From an uncultured Alphaproteobacteria bacterium (GTDB lineage: Bacteria > Pseudomonadota > Alphaproteobacteria > Rs-D84): a stretch of 64,000 nucleotides of DNA. Both the position numbers and the translations under genes were made by a program. Shown here piece by piece: positions 1 through 48,841 of this stretch. Below the pieces are notes generated by a model. It saw nothing but the letters and a program-made list of their open reading frames with translations. It ran no database searches and had not been told where the DNA came from. The DNA is taken from positions 4,830-68,829 of the forward strand of contig CALXLL010000004.1 in NCBI GenBank assembly GCA_944389185.1. The letters run 5' to 3'. Numbering within the stretch: position 1 is the stretch's first letter; every line of letters starts with the position of its first letter.

Positions 1-1432
1 CTTGCTGCCCTTGATATATTTCTGTAATAGCTTGGCGCATAAATTCATCCCATACTTCTTCGGATAAATCGCGACAAGTATCAAGGCTGTTTTCTGCAAA
101 TATTTTTTTATTATTAAGTTCGGCCACCAATAAGCGGTTGGTTTGGTTGGTTAATATGTCGCCTGATAATGAAACCTGAGTTTCTAATTGATAAAATTCA
201 GGACTGTAAATCGGGGCACCAGTATCACGATTTAAGTATCTTCCCGTTATATCCAGACAATGGACATAGCCTTCACCACATGCGCTGTCAGCCGTTAAAT
301 CTTTTCTGACGTTGGCGACACAATCGTTTATAGACGTTGAATTATGTGCATTATAGTTATCCAATCTGGCAACATTCATACTTCTTTCAGCGTCCCTGAT
401 AGAAGCGTTTGCATTATATAACTGCTTGTCCAAAGAATTAATAAGCAAAGAACAATCGTTTTCAATATACATACCGTATGCAGATACAACCATTTTTAAT
501 GTCGCATCAGACGGACAAGAACTTGATATCATTTCTACGCACTGTGCATGAACTGCGTTATATAGCTGTTCACCTGTTAAGTTTGCTATGTTTACGCCCG
601 AAGTTAAATCCGTCGTCGCCCATATTGCATTTATATCCCCCGCAATATCCAAGATGCCTTGTGTTGATAATGATTCAGATTTCGCATTTGATAGAACTTC
701 GCTTATTCCAGCAAGCTGTTGTGCCGCACTGGAAGTATCTTTCGCACCGGCAGCAATAGCTTCACCTTCGCTGGCCGTCATCATAGCTTGAACTTCTTTT
801 GCTGTTTTGTCTATTATGGCTAGATTTAAATTTGCGAAATCTTGCAGTTGACCAGAAGCTTGACTTAGTGCACGTTCCCTGTTTTGTATCTCTGTAATTT
901 TGGACGAGCATATACATCTTCTATAACTGTCGTTTGCCGTGGCACAAAATTGGTCCATACACGTAAAATAAGCATCTCGACATGCGTTATAACCAGTCCC
1001 AAAAGTTGTTGATTCAAGTGTGCTTGTAGATGCCGCCCTGGCAATAGCGTTCGTCGTCTGGGTTATTCTTGGAACAGAAGCAATCCTGGCAATCGCAACG
1101 CTTGGTGAAACCGTTGTTGTCCCCGCACGGGATACTGTATTTGTCGAAGAACGTTGAATTATTGCATTGTTTGTTGATGCCGACCTGGCACTGACATTTG
1201 TTTTTGGTTGCGTTGTTTTGTTCGCGTTATTTGTCCTTGATATAGTCGTGCTGGACCCACGACTTGATACGTTTTTTGATGTCGTTTGTTGCTGTAATAC
1301 GCCAGCCCGAGCCGTTACCGTTGTTGAATTACCGTCTTGTTGTCGTGATATACTATTAGAGTCACGAACAGCAGCTTCGGCCATATGTAAGCCGATAAAA
1401 CAAGCGGTCATAAAGAATAAAATCTTTTTCAT
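1..1432 (-). CDS. Large cysteine-rich secreted protein, paralog D (N-terminal ~477 codons only; runs off the window start)
   Basis: Absent from the ORF track because it has no in-window stop. I translated the minus strand by hand from ATG 1432..1430: MKKILFFMTACFIGLHMAEA|AVRDSNS (signal peptide), then a ~125-aa S/T/N/R-rich tract, then CRDAYFTCMDQFCATANDSYRRCICSS at 902..982. The frame is open to position 1 (checked codon by codon for 1..982). It aligns with the 1057-aa protein at 34294..37467 (CLDITGRYLNRDTGAP vs CLDTTGRYIDPSTGEA; VWDEF in both). Confidence 0.8.
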   Translation of the reverse strand, partial: MKKILFFMTACFIGLHMAEAAVRDSNSISRQQDGNSTTVTARAGVLQQQTTSKNVSSRGSSTTISRTNNANKTTQPKTNVSARSASTNNAIIQRSSTNTVSRAGTTTVSPSVAIARIASVPRITQTTNAIARAASTSTLESTTFGTGYNACRDAYFTCMDQFCATANDSYRRCICSSKITEIQNRERALSQASGQLQDFANLNLAIIDKTAKEVQAMMTASEGEAIAAGAKDTSSAAQQLAGISEVLSNAKSESLSTQGILDIAGDINAIWATTDLTSGVNIANLTGEQLYNAVHAQCVEMISSSCPSDATLKMVVSAYGMYIENDCSLLINSLDKQLYNANASIRDAERSMNVARLDNYNAHNSTSINDCVANVRKDLTADSACGEGYVHCLDITGRYLNRDTGAPIYSPEFYQLETQVSLSGDILTNQTNRLLVAELNNKKIFAENSLDTCRDLSEEVWDEFMRQAITEIYQGQQ

Positions 1433-1490
1433 ATTTATCTTATATATAATATCAAATAAAGCCCTTTCAGGGCAAGGCTTAATTTATCTT

Positions 1491-1520
1491 ATTAAAAATA
1501 AAACCGCAATATTTTGCGGT
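1491..1520 (-). terminator. Rho-independent terminator downstream of infA
   Basis: Perfect 7-bp stem accgcaa/ttgcggt (1503..1509 / 1514..1520) with a 4-nt loop, followed on the minus strand by a T-rich run (TTTATTTTT). Confidence 0.6.
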
Positions 1521-1525
1521 TAGGA

Positions 1526-1771
1526 TTATTGATTTTCTGTGTTAGTGTTTCTAGTTCTTTCAACAAAAGTTATTCGACCCTTGTCTAAATCATAAGGCGT
1601 CATTTCAACACGAACTTTTTCGCCTACGTTTACCCATATTCTTGCTTTTCGCATTTTACCGCAAACTGTTGCTAAAATTTCGTGACCGTTTTCTAGCTTG
1701 ACGCGAAACATCGTATTCGGTAATTTATCCATTACCGTTCCAGAAAAAACTATTACATCATCTTTTGCCAT
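1526..1771 (-). CDS. infA: Translation initiation factor IF-1
   Basis: 81 aa; MAKDDVI..G.V...LPN.MFRV.LENGH.ILA...GKMRK..I.....D.V.VE..PYDL.KGRI is the canonical IF-1 S1-fold sequence. Confidence 0.95.
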
Positions 1772-1907
1772 TATATATATTCCTTGAATATGACTGAAAA
1801 TAACAAAGCAATGATATTGTTTATAATAAAAAAAATCAAGATTTTTTTAAGTCTTGCACAATGTGCGCTTGTTTGATATTATTATATAATAATGTAGGTG
1901 GGATTTC

Positions 1908-4100
1908 ATGAATGTTAAAAATATACTAGCAATACTTTGTTTGTTTCCAAGTCTGGCGTTCGGGGCAGAAAGAACGGAAGAAGCCCGCGTGGGTGTAAAT
2001 CGTATGTCACAAGCCGCAGCACGAATGCCGAATATGGTTATCAATACAAGTCAAACATCAACTTCTTCTGTTAATACAAATAATTCTGATGCCGTTCAAG
2101 TTACCAAACCTTCTACTGTGACTGACGGTTCAAGTATAACAAATGAAGTTACAGAAAGTGCTTCAAATACTGATACTTCAAATAGTGTGCAGGAAATCGT
2201 GACCGTTGTTGAAGAAACAAATGGTAATTGTCGCGATGCTTATCGTGAATGTATGGATTTATTTTGTCTTTTGGACGAATCAGAAGGTGCAAGATGTGCT
2301 TGTTCTTCTAATATAGAGCAGGCAAAGCCGTTAATACAAGAAATTCAAGAAATTCAAGCAGAAGCAGATAAATTGTATACCGAAGGCGTAGAACGTGAAC
2401 AGTTAGGTGCAAAAGCATCGTTGGTATTCGGTGAAAGTGAACAAGCAAAAAAATCTTCTGCTGCATCAGGTATAAGCTTTACAGATTGGATAAATAGCGG
2501 AACAGAAGAAGCAGGATTGGGAACCGATTCTGGTATAGGTGATAATTTATATGCTATGGCGGCAGAATATTGTGCTTCAGAATTAGAGGCTTGCGGGGAT
2601 AAAGCTGAAATGGAAGAAATGCTTTATACGCGTCAAATAGTTGCCGATTGTAAGACTTTTGATTCTTACCTTGCTATGCAGAAGACAAACGCCGAAGCAA
2701 ACAAAAGAACCGCCGAAGCCGCAGTTAGAAAAGCAAGACTTGAAATGTTGGATACAACCAATAAATATAATCGTGGAGAGTGTCTGTTGGCTTATCGTGC
2801 TTGTATAGCAGATAAAGGTGGTTGCGGAACTAATTTTGAAAACTGCTTGGATGCAGATTTGTTGGCAAGACGTGCAAATGCTTGTGAAAATGTTTTGGAT
2901 CAATGTATGGCCGTTCGCGATTATGTCTTGCAAGACTGGGAAGCAGAAGCACAAAGTATTTTGGTTGAAGCCGCTAAATATGCAGATAAAAACGCTCGTG
3001 GAACATGCTTGGCCAGAATACAGCTGTGTTTAGAAGACAGTTGTTCTACTAGAACTAATTCGGCTTGTTTGACCGACGTTAACGTAGCGGCTGGTATTTG
3101 CCCTGTTATAGATGAATGTGAAGAAATGATCCCTGGTATTAAAACCGTTGTTAACGATAAATTGGGATATTTAAGAACTCAGTTTTGCCAAAATGATGTG
3201 GATTCTTGCCTGCGTGATAGGTGCGGTGAAAACTTTACGGCTCCGGAGTGCGTAGGTAAAACTTCAGCTGAAATTGCGGCTTTGTGTCCGCAGACTATGT
3301 TCCCGTCTTGTAAGAATGAAACTCAGTTTGACATAATTGTCCAAGCTGTGTTGTTGCAGATGGATTATCAGATGATGCAGGGCTGCGTGAATTATTTCAG
3401 TGAACAGTTAGGGCGCGTTTGCGGAACAGATATGTCTTGTTTGCCTACGGATACTCAGATTACGTCTTTAACAACAGTGCCGGATACGGAAGAGGGTTTA
3501 GCCGCTTTGCGTGAAACCGTTCGTGCAAACTCTCAGATTGCTGTTGACGAGTTCTTCAAACAATTTGAACAAGATAAGACCGTAGCCGCTTGTCAAGATA
3601 GCCAAAAACCAGCCGGTCAGAAAAGTCTGGGTGATAGCGTATTTACTACTGCAAAGTTAATTGCAGAAATTGGTGCGGAAAATAGAGCAATGAGAGAGCT
3701 TGAATCTAAAATTGCAGAGCTGTCCAGACAACAAGATTTAGAAGAAGCAGAACAAAATTGCTATGCTATGTTTAAAGTGGAAACGCCCGATAAGTCAAGC
3801 AAAAATTATAGCTATATAAAGAGTGTGTCTTTTGAACCGTCTTTAAGAAATTGTCACGTTTGTCGCGTTCAGCAAGTTTGCGAAGTCGGCGGTGAAACGA
3901 AAATGGCAGCCGCAATGAAAGGTGCAGCAGGTGGTCTGTCTGCTGGTGCAGCTGCAGGAACAATGGTGACACCAGGTTGGGGAACTGCCATTGGTGCCAT
4001 AGTCGGTGCCGTTGGTGGAGGTTTGTTAACAGGTCTTGGGTCCAGCGGTCAGCAAGAGTTCTGTCAAGAAATTGAATCTTGTGAAGACATAAATATGTAA
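1908..4100 (+). CDS. Large cysteine-rich secreted protein, paralog A (730 aa)
   Basis: AGGTGG Shine-Dalgarno 7 nt upstream of the ATG. Signal peptide MNVKNILAILCLFPSLAFG|AE, S/T/N-rich tract, signature CRDAYRECMDLFCLLDESEGARCACSS (2229..2309). Roughly 36 Cys by hand count, a Gly/Ala-rich hydrophobic segment, and a C-terminal CEDINM. Confidence 0.9.
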   Translation: MNVKNILAILCLFPSLAFGAERTEEARVGVNRMSQAAARMPNMVINTSQTSTSSVNTNNSDAVQVTKPSTVTDGSSITNEVTESASNTDTSNSVQEIVTVVEETNGNCRDAYRECMDLFCLLDESEGARCACSSNIEQAKPLIQEIQEIQAEADKLYTEGVEREQLGAKASLVFGESEQAKKSSAASGISFTDWINSGTEEAGLGTDSGIGDNLYAMAAEYCASELEACGDKAEMEEMLYTRQIVADCKTFDSYLAMQKTNAEANKRTAEAAVRKARLEMLDTTNKYNRGECLLAYRACIADKGGCGTNFENCLDADLLARRANACENVLDQCMAVRDYVLQDWEAEAQSILVEAAKYADKNARGTCLARIQLCLEDSCSTRTNSACLTDVNVAAGICPVIDECEEMIPGIKTVVNDKLGYLRTQFCQNDVDSCLRDRCGENFTAPECVGKTSAEIAALCPQTMFPSCKNETQFDIIVQAVLLQMDYQMMQGCVNYFSEQLGRVCGTDMSCLPTDTQITSLTTVPDTEEGLAALRETVRANSQIAVDEFFKQFEQDKTVAACQDSQKPAGQKSLGDSVFTTAKLIAEIGAENRAMRELESKIAELSRQQDLEEAEQNCYAMFKVETPDKSSKNYSYIKSVSFEPSLRNCHVCRVQQVCEVGGETKMAAAMKGAAGGLSAGAAAGTMVTPGWGTAIGAIVGAVGGGLLTGLGSSGQQEFCQEIESCEDINM

Positions 4101-4137
4101 AACGTTGCCAGTATTATAAAAAATAAGGTTGTAAAAA

Positions 4138-6642
4138 ATGTTTAGTAAAAAAAGTTCTTTAAGACTGTGGGGCTTTATCGGAATATGTGTTTTTGCTAAT
4201 TCGTCTTTTGCGGCCATAACTCAAAGACAATCTGCAATTCAGCAAGGAACAACGGTCAGATCAAGAACTTCTGCAACTGGTTTATATTCTCAGGAATGTT
4301 ATGACGCTTATTATGGTTGTATGGACCAGTTTTGCATACCTGATAACGCTAATGGTGGAAGTTGCACTTGCAGTGATGACAGTATTGAATATGAAAAGCA
4401 GTTTGCCGAAATAGAAGAAATGTTTAACGAAGCCGAACGTATAAGAACAGAAGAAGTAGAAAAAGTTAAAGCCGGCGCAAATGCAGATATAGTATTTACG
4501 GGTGAAAGAAGGTATGATTCAGATGGAAATCTTCTTGGGATAGGCGAAGAAACGGAAGAAGAGGCAAAGGAAAAAGCTCGTCAGGATTTGTTGGCGGTGT
4601 TTAATACCAATTTTTATGAAGAAGAAGACGATGTTTTTTCTTCTATCAGCAGTATAGCAGATTTAACAGGTGACGATTTGTATGCTAGTGCGGAAGAGCT
4701 TTGTCTGCAACAAATGCCAACTGGTTGCGATAACGATTTGACTTTCATAAGACAGTTATATGCAAGACAGATTGTTTCTGATTGTAACGGTTTTGCAAAT
4801 ATTATTAAGAGTAAAAAATCTGAAGCCGAGGCGGCTTTGGCAAGCGCTGAAGCAGAAGTAAGAACGGCTTTGCAGGAAAGTTTTGATTCTGCCAATAAGT
4901 ATGATTTGGGAACGTGTATGGTAGAATTCAAAAAATGTATGTTAACAGATGACGCTTGCGGTGAAGATTGGATTAATTGCGTATCCGTTGTTGCTTCGGA
5001 AAATATGCAGAATAATCAGGCAGAAAGCACGGCAGGAACAAGTATAGCCAGTGCTGATGTCTATGATATTACATCTTCTACGATGGAGATATTAAATTCT
5101 AAACGTCCGATTTGTGAAAGTGTTCTGTCACAATGCGTTGCCGTTCGTGATCAAGTTTGGCCCGCTTTTTTACGTGAAGCGGCACCTACTATTAAGGTTG
5201 CAGAATCTCAGGCTGAATCAAAGTTCCGTCAGTCTTGTTTGACCGAGATTTCAGATTGTATTCAAACGGCGTGTCGTGATGATATTGCTGGTAAAGGCGT
5301 TGCAACTATGGACGCTTGTTTATCCAGACCAGATATGGCGCGCAGTTTCTGTAAAGTAGAAATAGACCCTTGTGAAAGAATGGAACCTTTAATTTGGGGA
5401 TATGTTGTTGATAAGCTGGCTGCTATGCGTGTTGATGCTTGCACGCAAGAAGTAAAAGATTGCTTTACTAACGAGAACCGCTGCGGGCCTAATTTTGAAA
5501 ACTGCATAGGTATGGATTACGAATATATTCATAATATATGTCCTATAGATAGCTTAGTTGTTTGTAAGGCGAACAATCCTAACTTTTCTATGGAAGATTT
5601 AGATTCTATGTTAATGGGTCTGTATTTGAACATAGATAATGCAATGTTAGATAATTGTCAAAATGCAGTTGATAAGAAAATGGCTGAAATCTGCGGCAGC
5701 ACTACTGATTGTAACCGTTTCGCGTCAGATGATACTATTGGGACAGGAAGTTTGCGTTCTCAGAAAGACGGAGATGTTTATAGAGTTACCGGTATGATTT
5801 CGTTTGGCAGTATAAAGATGGGGGATGCATCTGGTTCTGTGACGGACACAATTGATGGTGAAGAGGTAGCATTAGAGCCTGGGCAAATAGGCGTTCAAGA
5901 TTATATAGCTAAAATACGTGAAGCAAATAAGGACGTTCCAGATCAGGCAAGCATAATAACTTCCATTGAAGAAGAGTTGAATAATATAGCTGGGACGATT
6001 AACAGGACGATAGAAATGATATCGCAAGATCCAGAAATTCAGTATTGTGTCAGTGGACGTAATTTATCACAGATTACAGGCGTAGAAGGCCAAAGCACTA
6101 CGGCAAGATTTCCGAATTTATTAAATCAGGTAAAGATGCAGATTGCGATAGCCGCGCTTAGACAAGCGCAAGATAATTATAACGCAAAGTTAAATACGGC
6201 AATAGCCGATGCAACAAAGAATGCATCTACGGACATTGCGCAGTATATGTGTCAAAAAATGGCTCAGAACGGTAGTTATGCTTTGGATATTTATGGCGCA
6301 ACTCCGTCAACGTCTTTAACTGAACCATATGCAATTAGTTATGAAGTAGGAACAGGGTTATCAAATGCAGAGCTTATAAGTGGCGGTGCTGGTGTATTAG
6401 AAATGGGCGGCGCAACATTTAAGAACTCTGGTTATCTTGGTGGCTCGGACATGACAGGTGGTGGTGCAACAAAAGAAACAACGGCAATATTTAATCGTGA
6501 TACAAGAATATGTCATATTTGCACGACTGTTACAACTCAATCTTGTGAAACAACGGGTAGCAGTAGCTGGTTCCATAATAACAGGAACGCTAGTTGTGAA
6601 ACTGTAGTTTCAGAGCCAAAGTGCGAAGACATACAGATGTAA
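4138..6642 (+). CDS. Large cysteine-rich secreted protein, paralog B (834 aa)
   Basis: Starts 37 nt after paralog A on the same strand. Signal peptide ...VFANSSFA|AI; signature CYDAYYGCMDQFCIPDNANGGSCTCSD (4297..4377). Collinear with A (LYA.A.E.C, Y.RQIV.DC, NKY..G.C, CG..F.NC, C..VL.QC.AVRD.V). Ends CEDIQM. Confidence 0.9.
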   Translation: MFSKKSSLRLWGFIGICVFANSSFAAITQRQSAIQQGTTVRSRTSATGLYSQECYDAYYGCMDQFCIPDNANGGSCTCSDDSIEYEKQFAEIEEMFNEAERIRTEEVEKVKAGANADIVFTGERRYDSDGNLLGIGEETEEEAKEKARQDLLAVFNTNFYEEEDDVFSSISSIADLTGDDLYASAEELCLQQMPTGCDNDLTFIRQLYARQIVSDCNGFANIIKSKKSEAEAALASAEAEVRTALQESFDSANKYDLGTCMVEFKKCMLTDDACGEDWINCVSVVASENMQNNQAESTAGTSIASADVYDITSSTMEILNSKRPICESVLSQCVAVRDQVWPAFLREAAPTIKVAESQAESKFRQSCLTEISDCIQTACRDDIAGKGVATMDACLSRPDMARSFCKVEIDPCERMEPLIWGYVVDKLAAMRVDACTQEVKDCFTNENRCGPNFENCIGMDYEYIHNICPIDSLVVCKANNPNFSMEDLDSMLMGLYLNIDNAMLDNCQNAVDKKMAEICGSTTDCNRFASDDTIGTGSLRSQKDGDVYRVTGMISFGSIKMGDASGSVTDTIDGEEVALEPGQIGVQDYIAKIREANKDVPDQASIITSIEEELNNIAGTINRTIEMISQDPEIQYCVSGRNLSQITGVEGQSTTARFPNLLNQVKMQIAIAALRQAQDNYNAKLNTAIADATKNASTDIAQYMCQKMAQNGSYALDIYGATPSTSLTEPYAISYEVGTGLSNAELISGGAGVLEMGGATFKNSGYLGGSDMTGGGATKETTAIFNRDTRICHICTTVTTQSCETTGSSSWFHNNRNASCETVVSEPKCEDIQM

Positions 6643-6650
6643 AAATGTAA

Positions 6651-6680
6651 GGTTCTGGTAATACAGAACCTTTTCTTTTC
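6651..6680 (+). terminator. Rho-independent terminator after the paralog A-B pair
   Basis: ggttctg-gtaata-cagaacc hairpin followed by ttttcttttc. Confidence 0.6.
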
Positions 6681-12091: not shown

Positions 12092-12916
12092 ATGACTTGG
12101 ACAATATTGGTTCTAATAGTAGGTATTGCTCTTTACTTGTTTGGTGGCTTGCTATTCAAACAAGACGGTAAAAAACCTTCTACAAAAATCATGCTAGCAC
12201 ACAAATCAATCAAAATGCTTGCTATCATATTGGTTGCAGGCAGCGTTTGTCGTTTGTATGTTCCATACTATATGACTTCTGTAAATCCTATGATTTTACA
12301 AGAAATGATTAATAGCATGCAAGAACAGCAAAACGCAGAAAAAAATAAAGCGATTCGTTCTTTCGTTCGTGACAATACGGACGTTATGGTTGCAGATGCA
12401 CCTGTTATGGGTAAGCAAGACGCTAAGAAAACCATATTTGTCTGGACAGACTTTTCTTGCCCATACTGCCGTCGCGTTCATGGCGAATTAGATCGCGTTT
12501 TAAAGAATCGTGACGACGTTCGCGTTGTTGTTAAGAACTTTTCTATACACGGTCCTTTGTCTGATGGTCCTGCAAAAGCAGTTATCGCAGCTAAATTACA
12601 AAGTCCAGAAAAATCTGCTAAGTTAGTAGATATGTTGATGACTCGCAATTATTACACTCAGGATGATTTGAAAGATCAATCAAAGATTGCTGAAAAAGTA
12701 GAAAAGAACGTTATGAAAATGGCTGAAGAAGCTGGCTTGGATACGGCACAACTGAAACAAGATATGGATGGTGAAGTTGTCGCTCGTGAATTAGCAAACG
12801 TTCGTGATTTGGCTCAACGTTTTGAAATCACAGGAACACCTTTCTTAATCATCGGTGAAGAAGCGTTCCCAGGTGCAATACCTTATGAACAAATCAATAA
12901 TGCTTTGGACAAATAA
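12092..12916 (+). CDS. Membrane-anchored DsbA-family thiol:disulfide oxidoreductase
   Basis: 274 aa; N-terminal TM anchor; thioredoxin-fold active site FSCPYCRR (CPYC); C-terminal ...GTPFLIIG typical of DsbA/Com1-like proteins. Confidence 0.8.
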   Translation: MTWTILVLIVGIALYLFGGLLFKQDGKKPSTKIMLAHKSIKMLAIILVAGSVCRLYVPYYMTSVNPMILQEMINSMQEQQNAEKNKAIRSFVRDNTDVMVADAPVMGKQDAKKTIFVWTDFSCPYCRRVHGELDRVLKNRDDVRVVVKNFSIHGPLSDGPAKAVIAAKLQSPEKSAKLVDMLMTRNYYTQDDLKDQSKIAEKVEKNVMKMAEEAGLDTAQLKQDMDGEVVARELANVRDLAQRFEITGTPFLIIGEEAFPGAIPYEQINNALDK

Positions 12917-17013: not shown

Positions 17014-17190
17014 GAGTATATAAGGTAGCAAGCATTTTTACCCATGTAAAGCAGAAAGTTTTTTGCGCTTTTTTTATTAAAAAAGTGCTTTTTTATAAAA
17101 ATCAAGTCTTTTATTTTAACTAATTTACTTGTCCGCGGCTTTTTAACATCGTCAAAATATGATAAAATGTATATCAAGATAGCGAGAGAG

Positions 17191-18291
17191 ATGGAAAAGT
17201 TTTTAAATAAAATCTTAACAGGCGATTGTGTGGATGTTATGCGCTCTTTACCAGATGCGTCCGTTGATGCGGTGTTTGCGGATTCTCCTTATAATTTGCA
17301 GTTGGGAACGAAAACTTTGTATCGACCAGAAGACCAGACCGCTGCAAGGGCTGTTCGTGACTCTTGGGATTCTTTTTCTTCTAATAAAGAATATGATGAC
17401 TTTACACGTGCTTGGTTGACCGAATGTAAAAGAATTTTAAAACCAGATGGAGCCATGTGGGTAATTGGCAGCTATCATAATATTTTTAGATTAGGGGCAA
17501 TTCTGCAAGATCTTGGTTTCTGGATTCTTAATGATATTGTATGGGTAAAAACGAACCCTATGCCTAATTTTCGTGGAACAAGATTTACTAATGCTCATGA
17601 AACTTTGATATGGGCCACGCCACGAAAAACAGGTAAATATACGTTTAATTATGAAACTATGAAAAAACTTAACGGCGGTAAGCAAATGCGCTCTGACTGG
17701 GATTTGAATATTTGTCTTGGTGAAGAACGTCTTAAAGATAAAGACGGTAAAAGCCTTCATAATACCCAGAAACCACTTGATTTATTACGTCGAGTAATCT
17801 TGGCTTCTACTAAAACCGGCGATATAATATTAGACCCTTTTATGGGTAGCGGCACCACTGCGGTTGCAGCAAAAGAGTTAAATCGCCAATTTATCGGTAT
17901 TGAACGAGAAGAAACTTATGTCCAAGCTGCGTTAAAGCGACTGGAAAAAGTCGTTCCTATGGATTTGTCCGATATAGAAGTATCAGTTCCAAAACGTGAA
18001 GAAATTCGTGTCGCGTTTAGCGAGCTTTTAGAAGCTGGTTTATTGTATGCAGGTCAAACGTTGGTAAGCCCAAAGGGTGAACGCGTCATGATTACCAAAG
18101 ATGGACAATTAGTCCACAGCTTGTATGGCAAGGCTTCAATTCATGTTATGGCGGCAAAAATACAAAAAACAGTCAGCTTTAACGGTTGGGATTACTGGTC
18201 GGCAGAAAAAAGAGATGGTTCTTTGGTCCCAATTGATGAACTTAGAAAGTATATTCGCAGTATTAAACAAGATATTAAAAAGGCCGCTTGA
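17191..18291 (+). CDS. ccrM: CcrM-type N6-adenine DNA methyltransferase (beta class)
   Basis: Collinear with Caulobacter CcrM as I remember it (GDC....M..LP..SVD..FAD.PYNLQLG; WVIGSYHNIFR.G...QDLGFWILNDIVW.K.NPMPNF.GTRF.NAHETLIWA; HPTQKP..LL.R.IL..TK.GD.ILDPF.GSGTT). ATG 17191 gives the same spacing to GDC as CcrM. Motif IV reads DSPY (17281..17292) instead of DPPY. Confidence 0.88.
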   Translation: MEKFLNKILTGDCVDVMRSLPDASVDAVFADSPYNLQLGTKTLYRPEDQTAARAVRDSWDSFSSNKEYDDFTRAWLTECKRILKPDGAMWVIGSYHNIFRLGAILQDLGFWILNDIVWVKTNPMPNFRGTRFTNAHETLIWATPRKTGKYTFNYETMKKLNGGKQMRSDWDLNICLGEERLKDKDGKSLHNTQKPLDLLRRVILASTKTGDIILDPFMGSGTTAVAAKELNRQFIGIEREETYVQAALKRLEKVVPMDLSDIEVSVPKREEIRVAFSELLEAGLLYAGQTLVSPKGERVMITKDGQLVHSLYGKASIHVMAAKIQKTVSFNGWDYWSAEKRDGSLVPIDELRKYIRSIKQDIKKAA

Positions 18292-25893: not shown

Positions 25894-25937
25894 TGTTAAG
25901 CTTTAAGAAAATCTTAAAGTATAAATGAAAAAGTTTT

Positions 25938-26013
25938 GGGGTTGTAGCTCAGTTGGTAGAGCATCTGCTTTGCAAGCAGAGGGTCGTCAGTTCGAGTCTG
26001 ATCAGCTCCACCA
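25938..26013 (+). tRNA. tRNA-Ala (anticodon UGC)
   Basis: GGGGTTG TA GCTC AGTTGGTA GAGC A TCTGC TTTGCAA GCAGA ... CAGCTCC A CCA; 76 nt. The G3:U70 alanine identity pair is present; CCA is encoded. Confidence 0.93.
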
Positions 26014-26050
26014 GAATAAATGCAAAATTGTTGAAGGGGGTGAATCGCTA

Positions 26051-26257
26051 ATGGTAAAAGTTCTTGTTCGTGATAATAACGTAGAACAAGCCTTACGCGT
26101 TGCAAAACGTAAATCTCAGAAAGAAGGTTTGTATCGTGAAATGAAAGAACGTCAGCGTTATGAAAAACCTACAACAAAGCGCAAACGTATGAAAGAAGAA
26201 GCCATTCGTAATGAAAAAAAACGTCAGTCAAAACAAAGAATGGTATTCGGTTTCTAA
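26051..26257 (+). CDS. rpsU: 30S ribosomal protein S21
   Basis: [24 protein letters not shown]...E.K.R..YEKP..KRKR is canonical S21, with a GAAGGGGG Shine-Dalgarno upstream. The 110-aa track ORF (25925..) reads through the tRNA and is not the gene. Confidence 0.9.
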
Positions 26258-29670: not shown

Positions 29671-30219
29671 TTAAAATACGTAACGAAGCTTTAAGCGTAA
29701 GTCATAGTGCAATATATCGGGTTCGTTACCTGCCACAGCCGTATAAGCGTCTGGGAAGTATAACACGCGTGCTTCGGCATCAATATTGAAAGGTATAACG
29801 GGCAGGTCAAAAGTTAACCCCAGCATACCTTGATAAATCATATCGTCTTTTGTTTTTATAGATGATAGTTCTTTTAGTTCACCGTCAAAAGCAATACCAG
29901 CACCGACGCCGATATAAGGGTGAATTACTGCGGAAGGTATTTTGAAATAAGCGTTTACCATACCTGTATTCATAAATAATACGTTATTATTCAGATAATC
30001 ATATTCAGCTTCTATGCGGAACAAAGGAATATCCATACCGATAACCGCACCATAAGACTGAGCGTTTTCTGTTACGGTTTGGTCTTGTAAGAATATTGCT
30101 GCGCCACCTGCACCGACCGTTACCCCAATATAAGGGTCTATTAACAGACCGGCGTTTGCACCAGCAGTTAAAAATAAAGTTGAACAAGCCGTTAAAAAAC
30201 CTGCTGTTTTTAATTTCAT
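29671..30219 (-). CDS. Small outer-membrane beta-barrel protein (OmpW/opacity-porin-like)
   Basis: 182 aa; signal peptide; alternating hydrophobic beta-strand pattern; C-terminal ...LRLKLRYVF with a terminal Phe. Confidence 0.65.
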   Translation of the reverse strand: MKLKTAGFLTACSTLFLTAGANAGLLIDPYIGVTVGAGGAAIFLQDQTVTENAQSYGAVIGMDIPLFRIEAEYDYLNNNVLFMNTGMVNAYFKIPSAVIHPYIGVGAGIAFDGELKELSSIKTKDDMIYQGMLGLTFDLPVIPFNIDAEARVLYFPDAYTAVAGNEPDILHYDLRLKLRYVF

Positions 30220-30266: not shown

Positions 30267-30791
30267 ATGCAAGAAAATAAACCTATGTTAATAGTAGGTC
30301 TTGGAAATCCTGGGCCAGAGTATGCATTAAACAGGCACAACGTTGGATTTATGGCAATAGATTATTTTGCTGGGGCGGGCGCAAGTTGGAAGAATGAAAA
30401 GAACGCGCTTACGTTCGGGACCGATTTGGACGGTCACAAGGTAATATTTGTAAAACCGCAAACATTTATGAATAACAGCGGTATAGCCGTTCAGGCTTTG
30501 ATGCATTTTTATAAGATACCGCTGGAAAACTTGATTGTGATACACGACGACATGGATATAAAACCGGGCAGTTTTCGTAAGAAGACGGGTGGCAGCAGTG
30601 CGGGGCATAACGGTATAAAGTCCATAGATGCAAGCGTCGGGGCAGATTATCAAAGAATAAGAATCGGTATCGGTCATCCGAAAGATTTTAATTTACAGAT
30701 GTCACCTTCGGATTGGGTAGTCAGCAATTTTTCTAAGGCAGAGCTGGAAACGATATCCAAAGTAATACCAGAAATAAATCTATTTGACTAG
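30267..30791 (+). CDS. pth: Peptidyl-tRNA hydrolase
   Basis: MLIVGLGNPGPEY...RHN.GF motif and HNG.KSI. ATG 30267 was chosen. The 5' extension of the track ORF (30096..) overlaps the opposite-strand OMP gene and is spurious. Confidence 0.9.
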   Translation: MQENKPMLIVGLGNPGPEYALNRHNVGFMAIDYFAGAGASWKNEKNALTFGTDLDGHKVIFVKPQTFMNNSGIAVQALMHFYKIPLENLIVIHDDMDIKPGSFRKKTGGSSAGHNGIKSIDASVGADYQRIRIGIGHPKDFNLQMSPSDWVVSNFSKAELETISKVIPEINLFD

Positions 30792-33088
30792 TAAGGTATA
30801 TTTATACCGCTTGGTAAATAAAAGCATCCGTTATTATCACAGAACTGTGTTCCAGAACTTCCGCCGGTAATTGTGCAAGCGTTTATATTTTGTGCACTTG
30901 TAGTTGTGGTTGTAGAACCTGCTGGGCAAAGCTGGCAAACGGTTTTACCGGCGGTTTCTGAACCATAATAACCCAGTGGGGCAGGGGAGCATTCTATTGA
31001 ATCTGATGTTTCAAGGCAACAGCCTGCCTGACAGGATATGTTACCATATGTGCAGTTACCCCACATAGTATTTTCACCTGTGCCAGAGAGATATTGACAG
31101 CTTGAATTTCTGGTTCCACAATCACCGGCCGCTTCGCCACTTGTATTACATTCACATTTGGCGTAGTTATACACTTGGTCTTTGTCATTCCATTTTGCTA
31201 ATCCAGTTATTCCAAAACCGAATTCGGTACTTTTTGGACAATTACCTAGGTGTTCAGAACATGCAATTTGGTTAGGGTCGCAGGCAGGATATAAGGTTGT
31301 TTCACATTGTGTGCTAGTGCCATCTGGGTTGCCGTGATAATTGCTAGCGCAACTGGTTATATAACACTGTCCGTATTTGCTTTCGTCGTTTAACCAGAAC
31401 TTAATACCAGAAGAAGCATTGGTATCGTCTGGTTTGCAAGATTGTTTATTTGGTATGCAGGCATTATTGGCTTCTGTTGGGTCGTTTTCATTAAAATGAT
31501 AACCAAAGCATATGTCATCTGGATTATTACAAGTTACGAAATTTTTATCTTTAAAATTGTTATATTGGCAGTCGTTTTCATAATATACGTTTTTTATATC
31601 TGGTTTTAACGAACCACCTGTAATCGTTTTGGCTTCGCATACTTGATAACAATCTGTATCGTTTATAGAACCTTCTGCAGAATGAACCCATGGGGCAGGA
31701 CATTCTTGCTGGCCTATGCCTTCCCCAGGACAATAAGAACCACTAGGGCATAGTTTACATTTATTTACAGCATCAAAATCACATCCAGGGATGCTGAGAC
31801 ATACTTCTTGGTCTGTAATACTATTGCATTCACCCGTGCAGTCGTCCGGGGAATCTGAACCTGCTGGGGAGCCTGTTCCGGTTGGACATTCTACGGGTTT
31901 ATCTGGTCCACCTGCACACCAATAACCTTCTTCACATTGTTCACAAGTGGCGGTGCCATTTGTTTCTGTTACATATGCGCCTCTAGTTGCCCGAAAATCA
32001 ATTGATACTGTTATTTCACCCCAAGCAGTTGCACTGGATGCCGTTTGTTTTAACTGTCCAGAGTCGCAATATTTGCTTACTGTTGTGGCATCTTTTGTTT
32101 GATAACAATTACTATAACTAGTCCAACCAGTTCCAGTTCCACGTGTCCAACCGTCAGTTTGTGCAGGACAACTGCTGCAACTGGTTGCTGTTCCGCCATT
32201 AGAATACACTGCACCACTGCATTGTGTGCATGTGTTTAATTTTCTATCTATAAAAGCCCCAGGTTTTGCTTTTACTTTATCCATTTGTGTGGGCCCCCAA
32301 GTTCCTTCTGCGGTGGCGTTTTGATATATGTATCCGCTTTCACAAAAATTACTGATTGATGTCGCAACTTTTGTTTGGGTGCATTGTGTAATATTTGACC
32401 AACCTTCACCAGTTGAAAGCGTCCAATTCGTTGTGTTTGTTGGACAATTTTTTCTTAGCCCATTTTCACAATATACACTGCCACTGCATATTGTTTGTGA
32501 TATACATGCAATGTTTGTTGATTGACAATCAGAAGCATAATATCCTGTATTTGGTGTCAAGCAAGATTCACTGGCTTTTTGTTGGGATGTTTTATACTGA
32601 CCAGATTGGCAAGCCTGCCATACTGCATATAATATAATACCTTGTGACGGGTCATAATCTGATGGAACAGTATAATTAAAGCTGCCGGTTGTTGCAGAAG
32701 TATTTGTTGACCAACCTATTAAAACATATCCTGCACGATAAAAATTGGTTGTATTTCCATCTGGTAAACTGATGTTATTGTCAGATGATACGTCTGTTAT
32801 TGATTCTGGTGCAGTTCCATTACCGCCATTCAGGTTAAATGATATTCCTGGTATCGGTATGGGACATTCTGTATCACCTGCACAGGTATATCCATCCGGA
32901 CATGGCAGACAAGCATTTCCAGCAGCAGACACTGGGTTACATTCTTTGTTTGTGTTGGATGTCGCCATATAATAATTTTTTGAACAAGAAGAGTATTTTT
33001 TGTCGCATGTATATCCTGCACCTGCCACATTATATATTGGGACAATAAATATAACAAAAATAATAAAATATTTAATGTATTTTAACAT
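30788..33088 (-). CDS. Secreted cysteine-rich surface protein (766 aa) with a Listeria-Bacteroides repeat and C-x2-C-P-x-G-type (ephrin-receptor-like / GCC2_GCC3-like) repeats
   Basis: Signal peptide MLKYIKYFIIFVIFIVPIYNVAGA. ISFNLNGGNGTAP...AGYVLIGWSTN...IILYAVWQ (32615..32845) fits the Flg_new/List_Bact repeat. Also CLPCPDGYTCAGDTEC, CEQCEEGYWCAGG...EC, CKLCPSGSYCPGEG...EC, CQLCPAGSTTTT...AC. Confidence 0.85.
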   Translation of the reverse strand: MLKYIKYFIIFVIFIVPIYNVAGAGYTCDKKYSSCSKNYYMATSNTNKECNPVSAAGNACLPCPDGYTCAGDTECPIPIPGISFNLNGGNGTAPESITDVSSDNNISLPDGNTTNFYRAGYVLIGWSTNTSATTGSFNYTVPSDYDPSQGIILYAVWQACQSGQYKTSQQKASESCLTPNTGYYASDCQSTNIACISQTICSGSVYCENGLRKNCPTNTTNWTLSTGEGWSNITQCTQTKVATSISNFCESGYIYQNATAEGTWGPTQMDKVKAKPGAFIDRKLNTCTQCSGAVYSNGGTATSCSSCPAQTDGWTRGTGTGWTSYSNCYQTKDATTVSKYCDSGQLKQTASSATAWGEITVSIDFRATRGAYVTETNGTATCEQCEEGYWCAGGPDKPVECPTGTGSPAGSDSPDDCTGECNSITDQEVCLSIPGCDFDAVNKCKLCPSGSYCPGEGIGQQECPAPWVHSAEGSINDTDCYQVCEAKTITGGSLKPDIKNVYYENDCQYNNFKDKNFVTCNNPDDICFGYHFNENDPTEANNACIPNKQSCKPDDTNASSGIKFWLNDESKYGQCYITSCASNYHGNPDGTSTQCETTLYPACDPNQIACSEHLGNCPKSTEFGFGITGLAKWNDKDQVYNYAKCECNTSGEAAGDCGTRNSSCQYLSGTGENTMWGNCTYGNISCQAGCCLETSDSIECSPAPLGYYGSETAGKTVCQLCPAGSTTTTTSAQNINACTITGGSSGTQFCDNNGCFYLPSGINIPY

Positions 33089-34293: not shown

Positions 34294-37200
34294 TTACTCG
34301 TATGATACTTGCCATTTGTTCGGTATTTGACAAGATGTTTCTGGTTGATCCGATTCCCATTCTTGCGTATCAAAATTCAATGTGCAACGGGGAACACTGT
34401 CATAATATAAATAATAGTTTTCTGATTGGTTCGTTGTCGTGGGCCTTATGTATTGCCCCGTCGTCTTGTTAACCAATACATATTCACCAGCACATCTAAT
34501 CGTTTTACCGTTCGGAAATGCACCGCCTTGGTCTTCGAATGACGTTTCCCCACCAGAACAAATTAAGAAATACGTCCCGTCCACATATTCTGCGTTATCC
34601 TTAACAACCGCCGCAGCAACCAAATTGTTCGGTGCGTTCGGCGTGCATAATCCTCTGGGTATCGTGGTCGCCGTCTGACCTGTCCGGAAATAACTCGTAG
34701 TGGTTTCCCAATTCAAATTATTTACCTTTTTCGGGCTTTCTTCTTTGCAGCAGTTCCCGTTAAAGTCTAGCGTCCCAGATACGTCACCGTCTGCCGTGGT
34801 TTTCTTGCAGCAATTGGTTATATTATTTGCCAAACCTTCTAACGTGATTTCAATCCTTTCAAAGTTTTCAGGACACATAACACCGTCATCGGTAAAATTA
34901 CTGGAACTATAACAAGATATATTACCGTTTTCATCTGTCTGGGCCCTGTAACCAATAGGACACGTCGTGTCGCGACAACTGTCCGCACGACTTTCCGTGC
35001 TGGTGTTCTTGGCAAACCAATACAGTAAAGTTTCTTTTTTGCTGTCCGTATATTTTATCCTGTTATGACTTTTTGAAGATTGTAAGTTCGTCGTCGGTAA
35101 TACTTCGCAGTTACCCCATAAACTTTCAGCAATCCTGCAAGCCTTGCATGAAAAAGAATCTTTCGTCCCGTAACTGTCGGTATCAGAATCATATCCGCAT
35201 TCTGTCGCACATATGTCATATATACAATTAAAGGCTTGACTTGTTCCGTCTTCTTGGTTAATAGCAAGAGCGCTGCACGCATTAGATGCTTCTTGCGTGT
35301 TCGTTATCGTTATGTCTATTTCGTTACCATATAAATACTTGTAGAACGTCCCTGTTTCTGAATCTATTATTTTGTTTTCTACTAACCTGGCCGTTACGTT
35401 GTCTATTGCCGACTGACCCGCGTCAACCACGCAATTAACAACTTCTTCCCAACAGGAATAACGATTTATAATAGATTTTCTGTTAATAGAATTCTGCACG
35501 TTTTCACATAAACCAAAATTACCAGATATTGACTTACATGCTTGAATCATGCAATTCTTACCAATTTCACGGCACGTCTGTAATATAGTGTCATACGTCT
35601 TGTCAGTAGCTATGTCGGTCATACCACCAATCCAATCGCTGTCACCACCTGTCGTTTCAAGTAACGCCGTGCAAGCCTGTTGAACCCCAGAACATATTTC
35701 TTTTACCGTCCTGTCAGCTGTAACGCCGAATACGGATAATGCCCTGGAATCAAAGTCTTCTATGGAATCTGCCGTTTCCGTTAAGCACTGGGTTGTTAAC
35801 GTAGTGCAACTTTGACGCATGTCTTCAAGCTTTTGTTCTTGGGCAAGCTTTATCTGCGCCAACGCATCTTCTATGAATTCGTCCCATACATAATCTGATA
35901 TGTCTTGACAGTTTTCCATGGCAGGTTCTAAAAACTTCTTTTTGGAATTTAAAAAACTGACAAACGCTTCGTTACCAGGTGTGTTAGTCCACGTCTGATC
36001 CGGGGCAGGGCGCGTTATAAGATTAACTAAGTTAACTAAGTCAACCGTTAAGAAAGCTTCACCAGTAGATGGGTCTATGTAACGCCCCGTCGTGTCTAAG
36101 CATTTACCAAGATTATCACCGCATACAGAATTGTCCGTCAACATATCCAACATTTTCTTTTTGCAGGTCAATATGTCGTCTGAATTCCGCTTTTGATATA
36201 TGTCTAAACGAGCCATATCAAGTAATGCACCGCTTTCAAAAATCTTTTCTCGGGCTTGGTCTTGTTGCGTTTCATACGCTTTGGCAACGGTATTACAGTC
36301 TTGCTCTATCAACATTTGATAGCCGCTTTCTATTATATCTAATTCTTCCTGAGAACATATTTCTAGCGCCATTTCACGACATACTGGTAACGCCGCATTA
36401 TATAACGCCGTTCCTGTCTTGCTGGTAGTGCTGGCCCCCAATAGCGGGTCTACTGTGTCAAACGCAGCATCCATGTTTAACGATAAGTTTATAGCATTTA
36501 AACTTTGATTAAAGTTTTCATCGTCAAAGCTGGCGTTTAATTTTTCTGCTATTTCATCCAGTAATTTCTTGGAATCTGTTTCGTCTTCTTTGTTAAATGC
36601 CAATTCACCTTCTGTCGCTTCAAATAAAGCTTCGGCGTCTTCTGCGTCCATGTTGACCGTTAATAGACGCTGATTAAAATCAAGCATCTTTTCTTCTATT
36701 TCATTTAATTGCTGCTTTACAGAATCAAATTCGTTTACGCGACTTGAACACGCGCAACGCTTAAGCTGACTGTCTTTGTTAGCACAAAATTCATCCATAC
36801 AGTTATTGTATACTTCACGACATTCTTGATAATTACTGTTCAATATGTCTTCTGCCGTTACCGCTTGAACTTCTGATAAACCTGTAGTCGCGCTTCTGGA
36901 TATTCGCCCGGATGAAGCCGCGTTGCGCACAGAACTTGCACTGGATATTCGTGATTGGTTGGTTGGCATTACACCAGTCCTTGCAATTGCCGCACGCGAA
37001 GGAACAGATATAACGTTGTTGGCACTTCTGCTGGTCATACTGCCCGTCGTTTGATTAGTTGTGCTTTGCCTTGATACGTTTATTCTTGTCGGCTGCGCTG
37101 CAACCCTTGATTGAACATTGGATGTAGATCTTACCGTGACGTTCTGCGCCTGCCTGTTGGTAACCTGAGAAGATGAATCAGACGTTTTTACGGCAGTTCT

Positions 37201-37467
37201 GTCTACAACTTCACCTGTTTCATCGCGATTACGAATTATCTGTTGGTCTTGCTTTGTCGGTGTGGCAGATGTAGAACGTGATATAGATGATGTAACATTC
37301 GTTTGATTTGGCTGTGAAGCAGAAGATGTTTGTCTGGTTGATGCTATCGTCGTCGTTTCACCACGACGAGTAGCCGCACGAACTGCGTCTTGCGCTTCTT
37401 CTGCCATACTTGCTTGAACGCCAAGCAAAGCAAGCACCAGACAAAGATATAATCTTATCTTTTTCAT
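34294..37467 (-). CDS. Large cysteine-rich secreted protein, paralog C (1057 aa)
   Basis: Signal peptide MKKIRLYLCLVLALLGVQASMA, a ~190-aa S/T/N/R/Q tract, signature CREVYNNCMDEFCANKDSQLKRCACSS (36742..36822). Central region homologous to paralog D. Distinct C-terminal ~330 aa carry CP.GY and CC motifs. Confidence 0.9.
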   Translation of the reverse strand: MKKIRLYLCLVLALLGVQASMAEEAQDAVRAATRRGETTTIASTRQTSSASQPNQTNVTSSISRSTSATPTKQDQQIIRNRDETGEVVDRTAVKTSDSSSQVTNRQAQNVTVRSTSNVQSRVAAQPTRINVSRQSTTNQTTGSMTSRSANNVISVPSRAAIARTGVMPTNQSRISSASSVRNAASSGRISRSATTGLSEVQAVTAEDILNSNYQECREVYNNCMDEFCANKDSQLKRCACSSRVNEFDSVKQQLNEIEEKMLDFNQRLLTVNMDAEDAEALFEATEGELAFNKEDETDSKKLLDEIAEKLNASFDDENFNQSLNAINLSLNMDAAFDTVDPLLGASTTSKTGTALYNAALPVCREMALEICSQEELDIIESGYQMLIEQDCNTVAKAYETQQDQAREKIFESGALLDMARLDIYQKRNSDDILTCKKKMLDMLTDNSVCGDNLGKCLDTTGRYIDPSTGEAFLTVDLVNLVNLITRPAPDQTWTNTPGNEAFVSFLNSKKKFLEPAMENCQDISDYVWDEFIEDALAQIKLAQEQKLEDMRQSCTTLTTQCLTETADSIEDFDSRALSVFGVTADRTVKEICSGVQQACTALLETTGGDSDWIGGMTDIATDKTYDTILQTCREIGKNCMIQACKSISGNFGLCENVQNSINRKSIINRYSCWEEVVNCVVDAGQSAIDNVTARLVENKIIDSETGTFYKYLYGNEIDITITNTQEASNACSALAINQEDGTSQAFNCIYDICATECGYDSDTDSYGTKDSFSCKACRIAESLWGNCEVLPTTNLQSSKSHNRIKYTDSKKETLLYWFAKNTSTESRADSCRDTTCPIGYRAQTDENGNISCYSSSNFTDDGVMCPENFERIEITLEGLANNITNCCKKTTADGDVSGTLDFNGNCCKEESPKKVNNLNWETTTSYFRTGQTATTIPRGLCTPNAPNNLVAAAVVKDNAEYVDGTYFLICSGGETSFEDQGGAFPNGKTIRCAGEYVLVNKTTGQYIRPTTTNQSENYYLYYDSVPRCTLNFDTQEWESDQPETSCQIPNKWQVSYE

Positions 37468-37527: not shown

Positions 37528-37612
37528 TGGTGCGGATAGGGGGACTTGAACCCCCACGGATTTCTCCACAGCATCCTTAGTGCTGAGCGTCTACCATTTC
37601 CGCCATATCCGC
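37528..37612 (-). tRNA. tRNA-Leu with apparent anticodon AAG (A34)
   Basis: Reverse complement GCGGATA TG GCGGAAATGGTAGACGC T CAGCA CTAAGGA TGCTG + long variable arm + GGGGGTTCAAGTCCCCC TATCCGC A CCA. Only the CAGCA/TGCTG stem gives a 5-bp stem with a 7-nt loop, which places AAG at positions 34-36. Confidence 0.8.
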
Positions 37613-48118: not shown

Positions 48119-48841
48119 TTATATGTATTTTGATTTCTTTAATATTTTTAGTATGTCTTGTTGCGTCCTTAACATACAATTATACATATAATCTGCATAA
48201 TATTTATAGTTGTCTTGTGCGCGTTCTCTAAGTGCCTGCATATAATCATATTTATCAGATTTTTTATTGAATATTATAGGTGTATATTTATTAAGAATTA
48301 AAAACCAATTCATAGCATATCTTCCTGTTCTTTTATTAAAATCGTTAAACAGTTGATTGGCTATGATATCGTAATGTATGTCTATGGCGCGGTTTAGAAT
48401 TGGAAGCCTGGAATCGTATAAATGTTGATGCATATTATGAATGTGATAAGGTAAAGTTTCAAATCGCGGGGCGTCTAGTTGTAACTGTTCTATATAAGCG
48501 TCGGAAAACCTATATTGACCGCCAGGTATATCAAGATTTTCGGCAAGATGTTTATGTATATCTCGTATATCTAAATAATCTAGGCGCTTTTTATTCTTTT
48601 GATTGATTATATATTGCCATGTTAAAACAGCGTTATTAAATACCATTGGTTGGATGTAATATTTCTTTTCTGATTTAGGTAAATAATCAGGGTATTGAAA
48701 TAATATTTTATTTTCTTCTGATATTTCGTGGCTTACCCATCCAAGATGAAACTTGTAATATTTATTACTTAGTTTTAAAAGTTCGTTAATCGTCTTACGA
48801 TTGGTTTCAATTGCTTTTTTTATAGATAAGCGATTAGACAT
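48119..48841 (-). CDS. Fic/Fido-fold protein with a degenerate active-site motif
   Basis: AIDIHYDIIANQLFNDFNKRTGRYAMNWFLI aligns to the Fic core ...H..I..IHPF.DGNGRTGR.L....L. The catalytic His is Gln and GNG is FNK (48320..48355). Confidence 0.6.
   Translation of the reverse strand: MSNRLSIKKAIETNRKTINELLKLSNKYYKFHLGWVSHEISEENKILFQYPDYLPKSEKKYYIQPMVFNNAVLTWQYIINQKNKKRLDYLDIRDIHKHLAENLDIPGGQYRFSDAYIEQLQLDAPRFETLPYHIHNMHQHLYDSRLPILNRAIDIHYDIIANQLFNDFNKRTGRYAMNWFLILNKYTPIIFNKKSDKYDYMQALRERAQDNYKYYADYMYNCMLRTQQDILKILKKSKYI

Follow-up and report, generated by a model that had tools for sequence, protein, structure and literature searches.

Exported cysteine-rich envelope and surface proteins are already known as a general kind; what is described here is a new protein family of that kind. 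It is encoded by four open reading frames (ORFs), paralogs A, B, D and E, in a 64,000-nt stretch of DNA (the window) from an uncultured Alphaproteobacteria bacterium of Rs-D84 (GCA_944389185.1, contig CALXLL010000004.1). The host is Candidatus Enterousia, an anaerobic gut lineage of the Alphaproteobacteria, order Rs-D84. The comparisons presented below indicate that the family is real, lineage-restricted and previously undescribed, and that its role probably lies in the cell envelope.

Four groups of described proteins are relevant for comparison. Like the chlamydial OmcB and OmcA, the four paralogs appear to be Sec-exported, Cys-rich envelope proteins of a diderm with a reduced genome, and the gene of a Pom-type porin lies beside E. 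Unlike them, the family is predicted to be all-alpha, whereas OmcB is beta-rich; no sequence or profile similarity connects the two, peptidoglycan genes are kept in the host, and the Cys pattern would point to internal staples. In addition, in contrast to the chlamydiae, Enterousia is a gut alphaproteobacterium that is not known as intracellular. TraN of F-type conjugation systems (PF06986) is a Cys-rich exported outer-membrane protein. The family resembles it in being exported, Cys-rich and several hundred residues long, and one B ortholog bears its name, yet BLAST, hidden Markov model (HMM) and profile-profile comparisons gave no similarity, no tra genes lie nearby, and the synteny is chromosomal, with housekeeping genes.

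Disulfide-stapled helical domains, with Cys on one helix face and repeated modules, are found in CHCH twin-Cx9C proteins, Helicobacter Sel1-like Hcp proteins and Plasmodium DBL domains. By analogy, helices of the present family may also be bound to their neighbours by disulfides, in modules that are repeated. There is, however, no homology to these proteins, the Cys spacing of the family is its own (C-x6-C-x4/6-C-x6-9-C), and taxon and compartment are different. Lastly, a Gly/Ala-rich segment of about 50 aa in A weakly matches the models of the Gly-zipper_Omp/YMGG proteins (SlyB/PCP, Rickettsia 17-kDa antigen). The score is sub-threshold, A has no lipobox, and the segment is inserted in the Cys-knotted C-terminal mini-domain of a 730-aa protein, unlike in Gly-zipper proteins; B, D and E are without it.

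Four paralogs with a common twelve-cysteine module

The original prediction, made from the DNA letters alone, had placed a family of giant Cys-rich secreted proteins around infA, with a fourth member further along the window. The ORF positions it gave for A, B, D and E are exact according to the ORF list and translations, as is the tandem arrangement of A and B with a gap of 37 nt. At 730-1057 aa, however, the proteins are large rather than giant. D is cut by the edge of the window, and its full length was taken from the source scaffold (ENA ERZ28613403, 116 kb; locus L082). The family features are the following.

1908..4100, plus strand: paralog A, ORF of 730 aa
1908-1964, plus strand: signal peptide of A, aa 1-19, read by eye
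aa 20-104 of A, plus strand: polar tract
about 2220-2957, plus strand: twelve-Cys N-module of A, about aa 105-350
aa 287-340, 362-410 and 422-475 of A, plus strand: Cys repeats R2, R3 and R4, respectively
to about aa 621 of A, plus strand: helical region, followed by a C-terminal beta mini-domain with CHVC
3891..4052, plus strand: glycine-zipper-like hydrophobic insert of A, aa 662-715, between C-terminal beta strands
4138..6642, plus strand: paralog B, ORF of 834 aa, starting 37 nt 3' of A
aa 1-25 of B, plus strand: signal peptide
4285-5187, plus strand: N-module of B, about aa 50-350, with Cys in the same order as in A
1..1432, minus strand: paralog D, N-terminal part of 477 aa inside the window; 812 aa in full
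aa 1-20 of D, minus strand: signal peptide
aa 21-145 of D, minus strand: cationic S/T/N/R tract with periodic [IV][SA]R
from aa 146 of D, minus strand: N-module
34294..37467, minus strand: paralog E, ORF of 1057 aa
aa 1-22 of E, minus strand: signal peptide
aa 23-210 of E, minus strand: Arg-periodic polar tract
35809-36828, minus strand: N-module of E, aa 214-553
C-terminal part of E, minus strand: Cys-rich extension of about 500 aa

Pairwise BLASTP yielded 29% identity between A and B (E = 2e-52) and 30% between D and E (E = 2e-53), with E-values of 2e-11 for A against E and 8e-13 for A against D. By these values the four proteins are homologous, with similarity far past chance, and since A with B and D with E are the strongest pairs, they divide into two subfamilies, A/B and D/E. 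When an HMM of the N-module was run against the six-frame translation of the window, only A, B, D and E were matched. Together with the BLASTP results, this establishes the ORF at 34294..37467 as a true paralog, as had been proposed.

All four proteins follow a common plan: a signal peptide, a polar tract free of Cys, a module of about 330 aa and then more Cys-rich sequence. Their N-termini present a basic n-region, a hydrophobic core of 10-14 residues and small residues at -3/-1, as read by eye. In the four-way alignment the module contains 12 invariant Cys; it opens with the motif C-x6-C-M-D-x-F-C-x9-C-x-C-S, which is followed by a helix and then by a Cys-dense core. The architecture outlined in the original prediction (signal peptide, tract, Cys signature, helix and Cys-dense core) is thus present in every member. 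The polar tract is short in B, with about 25 aa.

Of the 37 Cys of A, one belongs to the signal peptide, so that an earlier hand count of 36 is correct for the mature form. The mature forms of B and E have 36 and 42 Cys, respectively. No canonical lipobox (L-x-[GAS]-C) stands before the Cys within the signal peptides of the family, which are unconserved among orthologs and are followed by a cleavage site of the A-x-A type.

The core Cys of A are at positions 292/299/306/313/326/333, 367/374/379/387/398/404 and 427/434/439/448/460/468, which corresponds to an internal repeat of the form C-x6-C-x4/6-C-x6-9-C. Repeat profiles were built from 123 A and B sequences. In profile-profile comparison, R2 and R4 matched with an hhalign probability of 91% and an E-value of 1e-6, having C-x6-C-x6-CG-x-NF-x-x-C in common, and R3 against R4 was weaker (E = 3e-3). 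This similarity supports a true duplication as the origin of R2 and R4. The i/i+7 spacing would place the Cys on one helix face and would fit helix-to-helix disulfide ladders.

A and B also have in common a C-terminal mini-domain (R-x-C-H-[VI]-C ... C-E-D-I-x-M). In A alone, it contains the hydrophobic Gly/Ala-rich insert, which is strongly conserved among A orthologs, has a predicted local distance difference test (pLDDT) value below 50 in the structural model, and also gives a weak match to the NCBIfam model YiaD_Gzip. We propose it as a membrane anchor, as such a hairpin could insert in a membrane. The tracts of D and E (window positions 1-1372 and 36838-37401) contain a degenerate periodic [IV][SA]R every 8-12 residues or so, a pattern to which no known counterpart could be assigned. 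Across 62 orthologs of D, the spacer residues vary, but the AAVR with which the mature protein begins is kept, as are the Arg at their regular intervals. The D and E tracts also contain many N-x-S/T triplets, which their composition would produce in any case.

Conservation, extent and search for known relatives

Orthologs were sought in one genome per GTDB species, which resulted in 80 loci, all from metagenome-assembled genomes (MAGs). These are labelled Candidatus Enterousia, 'Alphaproteobacteria bacterium', 'proteobacterium' or 'bacterium', with a single 'Rickettsiales bacterium'. By tblastn, the order D(-) infA(-) A(+) B(+) was recovered in essentially every locus that reaches far enough, and in 63 loci three intact family ORFs lie within about 22 kb. 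Across the 80 loci, A is 56-80% identical, B 49-72% and D 48-72%, compared with 56-77% for the neighbouring OmpA-family protein and 82-97% for infA. Given that the identity of A is similar to that of its OmpA-family neighbour, a housekeeping envelope role is favoured over that of an arms-race antigen.

The ratio of nonsynonymous to synonymous substitution rates (dN/dS), calculated by the Nei-Gojobori method for the closest pairs of orthologs, ranges from 0.04 to 0.11 in A, from 0.03 to 0.11 in B and from 0.10 to 0.17 in D. Among the alignment columns with a Cys majority, those kept in at least 90% of species are 36/36 in A (53 species), 36/37 in B and 24/29 in D, while the corresponding proportions for other columns are 49%, 35% and 28%. 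Intact ORFs, low dN/dS and Cys conservation together indicate the paralogs are ancient, expressed-looking and selected, and not decaying copies. A, B and D each occur as one orthologous copy in a fixed gene order, and purifying selection on them is strong. The frameshifts in relatives that the original prediction had named as evidence against itself were not found in the 80 genomes, where orthologs are intact and under purifying selection. Its suggestion that the family is undergoing paralog expansion, on the other hand, is wrong for A, B and D, as only the D/E-like branch is strongly diversified.

A homologue search with a profile of the four paralogs returned almost solely A orthologs. A profile of the N-module, a scan that had also been suggested in advance, was searched against 1.84 billion cluster representatives (clusters at 50% identity) and recovered a broad family, with 824 clusters at E <= 1e-3, 500 of them reaching E <= 1e-30. 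For the best 150 clusters, the closest paralog is D in 82, E in 63 and B in five. With 145 of these 150 clusters being D/E-like, the D/E-like branch is much more diversified, and it includes several distinct C-terminal classes. Exactly 12 Cys were counted in the module of 128 out of 133 diverse representatives, and a start resembling a signal peptide is present in 118 of the 126 with a complete N-terminus. In those 126, the tract that precedes the module is Cys-free and rich in A, T, S and R (Arg 11.9%, D+E 3.6%), with medians of 121 aa for length and +14 for net charge. Over 150 representatives, the split into even (88) and odd (62) Cys counts carries no information, as these figures include fragments and the Cys of signal peptides.

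No known family was found to include these proteins. Neither Pfam nor NCBIfam contains a model that A, B, D or E match above threshold, and even with a Pfam scan of 25 diverse representatives included, all that appeared was sub-threshold noise (Gly-zipper, Lips and Chitin_synth, with DUF7631 in one member). Specifically, Chlam_OMP6 (PF03504) and Chlam_OMP3 (PF03503) were matched neither by A, B, D and E with hmmscan at E <= 1 nor by any of the 25 members, and no Sel1 or TPR match was obtained in either set. Searches of PDB sequences with the single proteins and with three profiles were without significant match, and the phmmer match of CHCHD10 to the Gly-rich segment of A (E = 5.3) is non-significant. 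Literature searches for the family returned no description, and public names of its members are 'hypothetical protein', save for the UniRef entry discussed below. A phage or mobile-element origin is unsupported, as IMG/VR and INPHARED (GenBank phages) contain no relatives.

Structural models were produced with AlphaFold2. The model of A (36-sequence alignment) has a mean pLDDT of 61 and a predicted template modelling score (pTM) of 0.34, with core blocks at 70-86. It consists nearly entirely of long helices, with a small C-terminal beta unit broken by the low-confidence Gly-rich segment. The model of B has a mean pLDDT of 58 and a pTM of 0.29, and presents an all-alpha core with small beta regions. 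Foldseek found no match at E <= 0.001 for the A model in PDB and BFVD or for the B model in PDB; its best matches are generic long-helix proteins with TM-scores below 0.2. The models thus suggest that these exported Cys-rich proteins are mainly alpha-helical, possibly with a new disulfide-stapled fold. The absence of any characterised domain in the core, noted in the original prediction, is borne out by the Pfam, NCBIfam, PDB sequence and profile, and Foldseek PDB and BFVD searches, and no profile or structure search assigned the proteins to a known family.

One public record appears to disagree. A B ortholog in our set (P0243, UniRef100_A0A9D1JWE5, 72% identical to B) is named 'IncF plasmid conjugative transfer protein TraN'. 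The name was rejected. P0243 has no Pfam match at E <= 0.5, whereas F TraN, scanned alongside as a control, matches PF06986 at 1e-79; the family profile compared with F-plasmid TraN reaches an hhalign probability of 0.45%; a tblastn search of 72,556 PLSDB plasmids with B as the query returned nothing at E <= 1; and no type IV secretion system (T4SS) or tra genes turned up among the scanned window genes. The label is probably an annotation error, which could spread.

Genomic context

The neighbours of the A/B locus are infA, MscS, BOF, OmpA, S6/L9, RecO, DsbA and PGK. The features that bear on the family are listed below.

1526..1771, minus strand: infA (IF-1, PF01176), a syntenic neighbour outside the family
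12092..12916, plus strand: DsbA-like thioredoxin-fold protein with a CPYC site (Pfam DSBA, 4.5e-21) and two N-terminal hydrophobic segments
29671-30219, minus strand: weak Surface_Ag_2 match, in the outer-membrane gene cluster around E
30788-33088, minus strand: unrelated Cys-rich exported protein of 766 aa (Pfam Flg_new and Ephrin_rec_like)
37528-37612, minus strand: tRNA-Leu(aag), 60 nt 5' of the E start, on the same strand
37702-39219, plus strand: porin matching Pfam Pom (Protochlamydia outer membrane protein, 1.7e-10), beside E
39936-40820, plus strand: DUF3078 protein, in the outer-membrane gene cluster around E
3770-6319 of L082, plus strand: autotransporter of 849 aa (PF03797), outside the window, about 0.8 kb past the D stop with a gene of 235 aa between

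D and infA are separated by 93 nt with terminator-like hairpins, one of which (1521-1502) is directly 3' of infA, so that infA is not demonstrably co-transcribed with D. A is preceded by a Shine-Dalgarno-like sequence (AGGTGGG). Given no terminator-like site exists between A and B, and a bidirectional hairpin (6649-6672) follows B, A and B probably form an operon, and the role of infA is that of a bystander. The claim that infA is embedded in the cluster thus stands as conserved D-infA-A-B synteny, and does not stand as a functional link, since infA has its own terminator-like hairpin in a compact genome. Expression of E by read-through from the tRNA-Leu(aag) promoter is possible.

The DsbA-like gene is 5.5 kb from the family genes, and its CxxC is kept in 13/13 related loci that reach it. 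We infer that its product is a candidate oxidase for the family disulfides. The window also encodes two OmpA-family proteins, the Pom-like porin divergent from E, LptB/LptC, an SLT transglycosylase and an M23 peptidase. These OmpA, porin, Lpt, SLT and M23 genes indicate a diderm cell with lipopolysaccharide (LPS) and peptidoglycan. The PF03797 autotransporter on the source scaffold indicates that at least a type V route to the surface exists in the organism.

The N-terminal 60 or so aa of the 766-aa Cys-rich protein (C..Y..C..YYM...AGNACLPCPDG) are 40% identical to a module in the C-terminal part of D (BLASTP, 4e-10), which suggests that Cys-rich modules have been shuffled between families. 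The C-terminal third of E bears no resemblance to this neighbour.

Other genes in the window were recorded as side observations. They include a Fic/DOC protein (48119-48841, minus strand), a subtilase, a CcrM-like N6/N4 DNA methyltransferase with a RAMA domain (17167-18291, plus strand), and a second, divergent ClpP-like protein (51199-51861, minus strand). A pyruvate:ferredoxin oxidoreductase (51953-55459, plus strand) fits an anaerobic lifestyle. The ORF of ribosomal protein S21 (110 aa, 25925-26257, plus strand) overlaps tRNA-Ala(tgc) (25938-26013, plus strand) at its 5' end; as the Pfam match spans aa 46-96 only, the real S21 start lies further downstream.

Proposed function and its alternatives

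The reading we favour, at a probability of roughly 0.4, is that A, B, D and E are Sec-exported, disulfide-stapled, mainly alpha-helical structural envelope proteins of Candidatus Enterousia and its Rs-D84 relatives. After export, their Cys would be oxidised to intramolecular disulfides, by which long helices would be locked as rigid bundles. A and B would act together, in keeping with their probable operon, equal Cys pattern and common C-terminal mini-domain, and the glycine-zipper hairpin would tether A to a membrane. D/E-like members would be docked to anionic envelope material through two elements, the conserved start of the mature protein and the cationic tract with its periodic Arg, and their variable Cys-rich modules at the C-terminus would face outward. 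The even, strictly conserved Cys sets of A and B would fit intramolecular staples better than a cross-linked lattice.

Several observations weigh against this reading. The tract of A is acidic; therefore, a cationic tract is not universal in the family. The mature Cys count of full-length D is odd (29), and no more than 24 of the 29 Cys columns in D are conserved. The match of the A insert to Gly-zipper_Omp (aa 672-706, E = 0.01) scores 16.2 bits against a cut-off of 25, and the A and B models are modest in confidence (pLDDT 58-61, pTM 0.29-0.34). The D/E-like branch, which dominates the best clusters, looks more suited to surface interaction than to a scaffold. No outer-membrane translocation route was identified for the family proteins, so periplasm and surface are not distinguished. 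Finally, neither DsbB nor VKOR was seen in the 64 kb read, and re-oxidation of DsbA is problematic in an anaerobic lineage reported to lack a respiratory chain (PMC12306168).

Enterousia belongs to an uncultured order, Rs-D84, and has genomes of about 0.75-1.0 Mb; in Rs-D84 genomes the TCA (tricarboxylic acid) cycle, respiratory chains, standard transporters and several steps of glycolysis are missing, and dependence on a partner was suggested as the lifestyle of the lineage (PMC12306168). The proteins might then be adhesins for partner-dependent life, in which a Cys-stapled helical stalk shows variable C-terminal Cys-rich modules that bind host mucus, host cells or other microbes, on which this metabolically deficient bacterium would scavenge. 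We consider this the main rival, possible though on the unlikely side. It agrees with the missing metabolic functions, with the high diversification and differing C-terminal classes of D/E-like members, with the module of about 60 aa that the D C-terminus has in common with the Flg_new/Ephrin_rec_like protein (domains typical of surface proteins), and with the long disordered tethers frequent in surface proteins. However, A, B and D are single-copy and syntenic, with dN/dS of 0.04-0.17 and no hypervariable tip, no known adhesin domain was matched in A, B, D and E, and no route across the outer membrane is evident. A more specific variant is a novel surface apparatus, in which disulfide-laddered helical stalks with a periodic-Arg tether, possibly held via porins or LPS, would attach Rs-D84 cells to a partner cell; this is doubtful. 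A chlamydia-like lattice, as hypothesised in the original prediction by analogy with OmcA/OmcB, in which family proteins and porins are cross-linked by intermolecular disulfides, seems improbable to us. The reduced-genome diderm host with Cys-rich exported proteins, the Pom-matching porin adjoining E and the odd Cys count of full-length D, which leaves one potentially free Cys, would accommodate it. Yet no homology underlies the analogy, given the unmatched Chlam_OMP6 and Chlam_OMP3 models; the predicted fold is all-alpha, unlike OmcB; the even, fully conserved Cys sets of A and B favour internal pairing; and peptidoglycan-related genes are kept, SLT and M23 in the window and RodA, MreB and MrdA in Enterousia genomes (PMC12306168).

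The remaining explanations concern other uses of the Cys or of the proteins as a whole. Periplasmic metal-binding or redox-buffer proteins, whose Cys bind metal or cycle between thiol and disulfide, would explain the CxxC with His (C-H-[VI]-C) in the A/B mini-domain, and would suit an anaerobic habitat with no respiratory chain reported, where stable oxidative folding is less obvious. We regard this as quite improbable, considering that 36 Cys at i/i+7 on predicted helices are, judging by spacing only, atypical for metal sites and typical of disulfide ladders, that no metal-binding or redox family was matched, and that a DsbA-like oxidase is kept. Secreted toxins or effectors, which the original prediction had offered as an alternative, are very unlikely, with nothing found in their support beyond the large size, export and lineage specificity of the proteins and a Fic-domain protein and a subtilase elsewhere in the window; their sequences yielded no domain of enzymatic or pore-forming type, neither an immunity gene nor a link to a secretion system was seen, and the four paralogs are conserved under strong purifying selection in fixed synteny. 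That the proteins stabilise mating pairs in a conjugation system, in the manner of TraN, is suggested by the UniRef name given to the B ortholog and by the equally Cys-rich, exported nature of TraN, but is hardly credible in view of the plasmid tblastn, hhalign and Pfam comparisons, all without match, the lack of T4SS genes among the scanned window genes, and the chromosomal synteny with housekeeping genes. Taken as a whole, the original prediction holds in that a new exported family exists, with export signals and a DsbA-like gene nearby, and is unsupported or overstated in the OmcA/OmcB analogy and the other points mentioned.

Candidatus Enterousia and Rs-D84 are widespread uncultured gut bacteria with genomes below 1 Mb, in which the at least four large genes of this family take up about 10 kb, or around 1%. 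Current domain databases do not detect the family, and in at least one public record a member goes under the wrong name of TraN. Its definition provides a handle for localisation, for metaproteomics and for the structure of a possibly new disulfide-stapled helical fold. It also raises the question of which oxidant would form about 18 disulfides (36 Cys) per protein in an anaerobe reported to be without a respiratory chain. Should the attachment-apparatus reading be true, the Proteobacteria would have, in Rs-D84, their own counterpart to the epibiotic way of life of Patescibacteria, and the fold on which it rests would be one without known relatives. Given that purifying selection acts on the family in every species examined, it is probably central to how these bacteria build or use their envelope.

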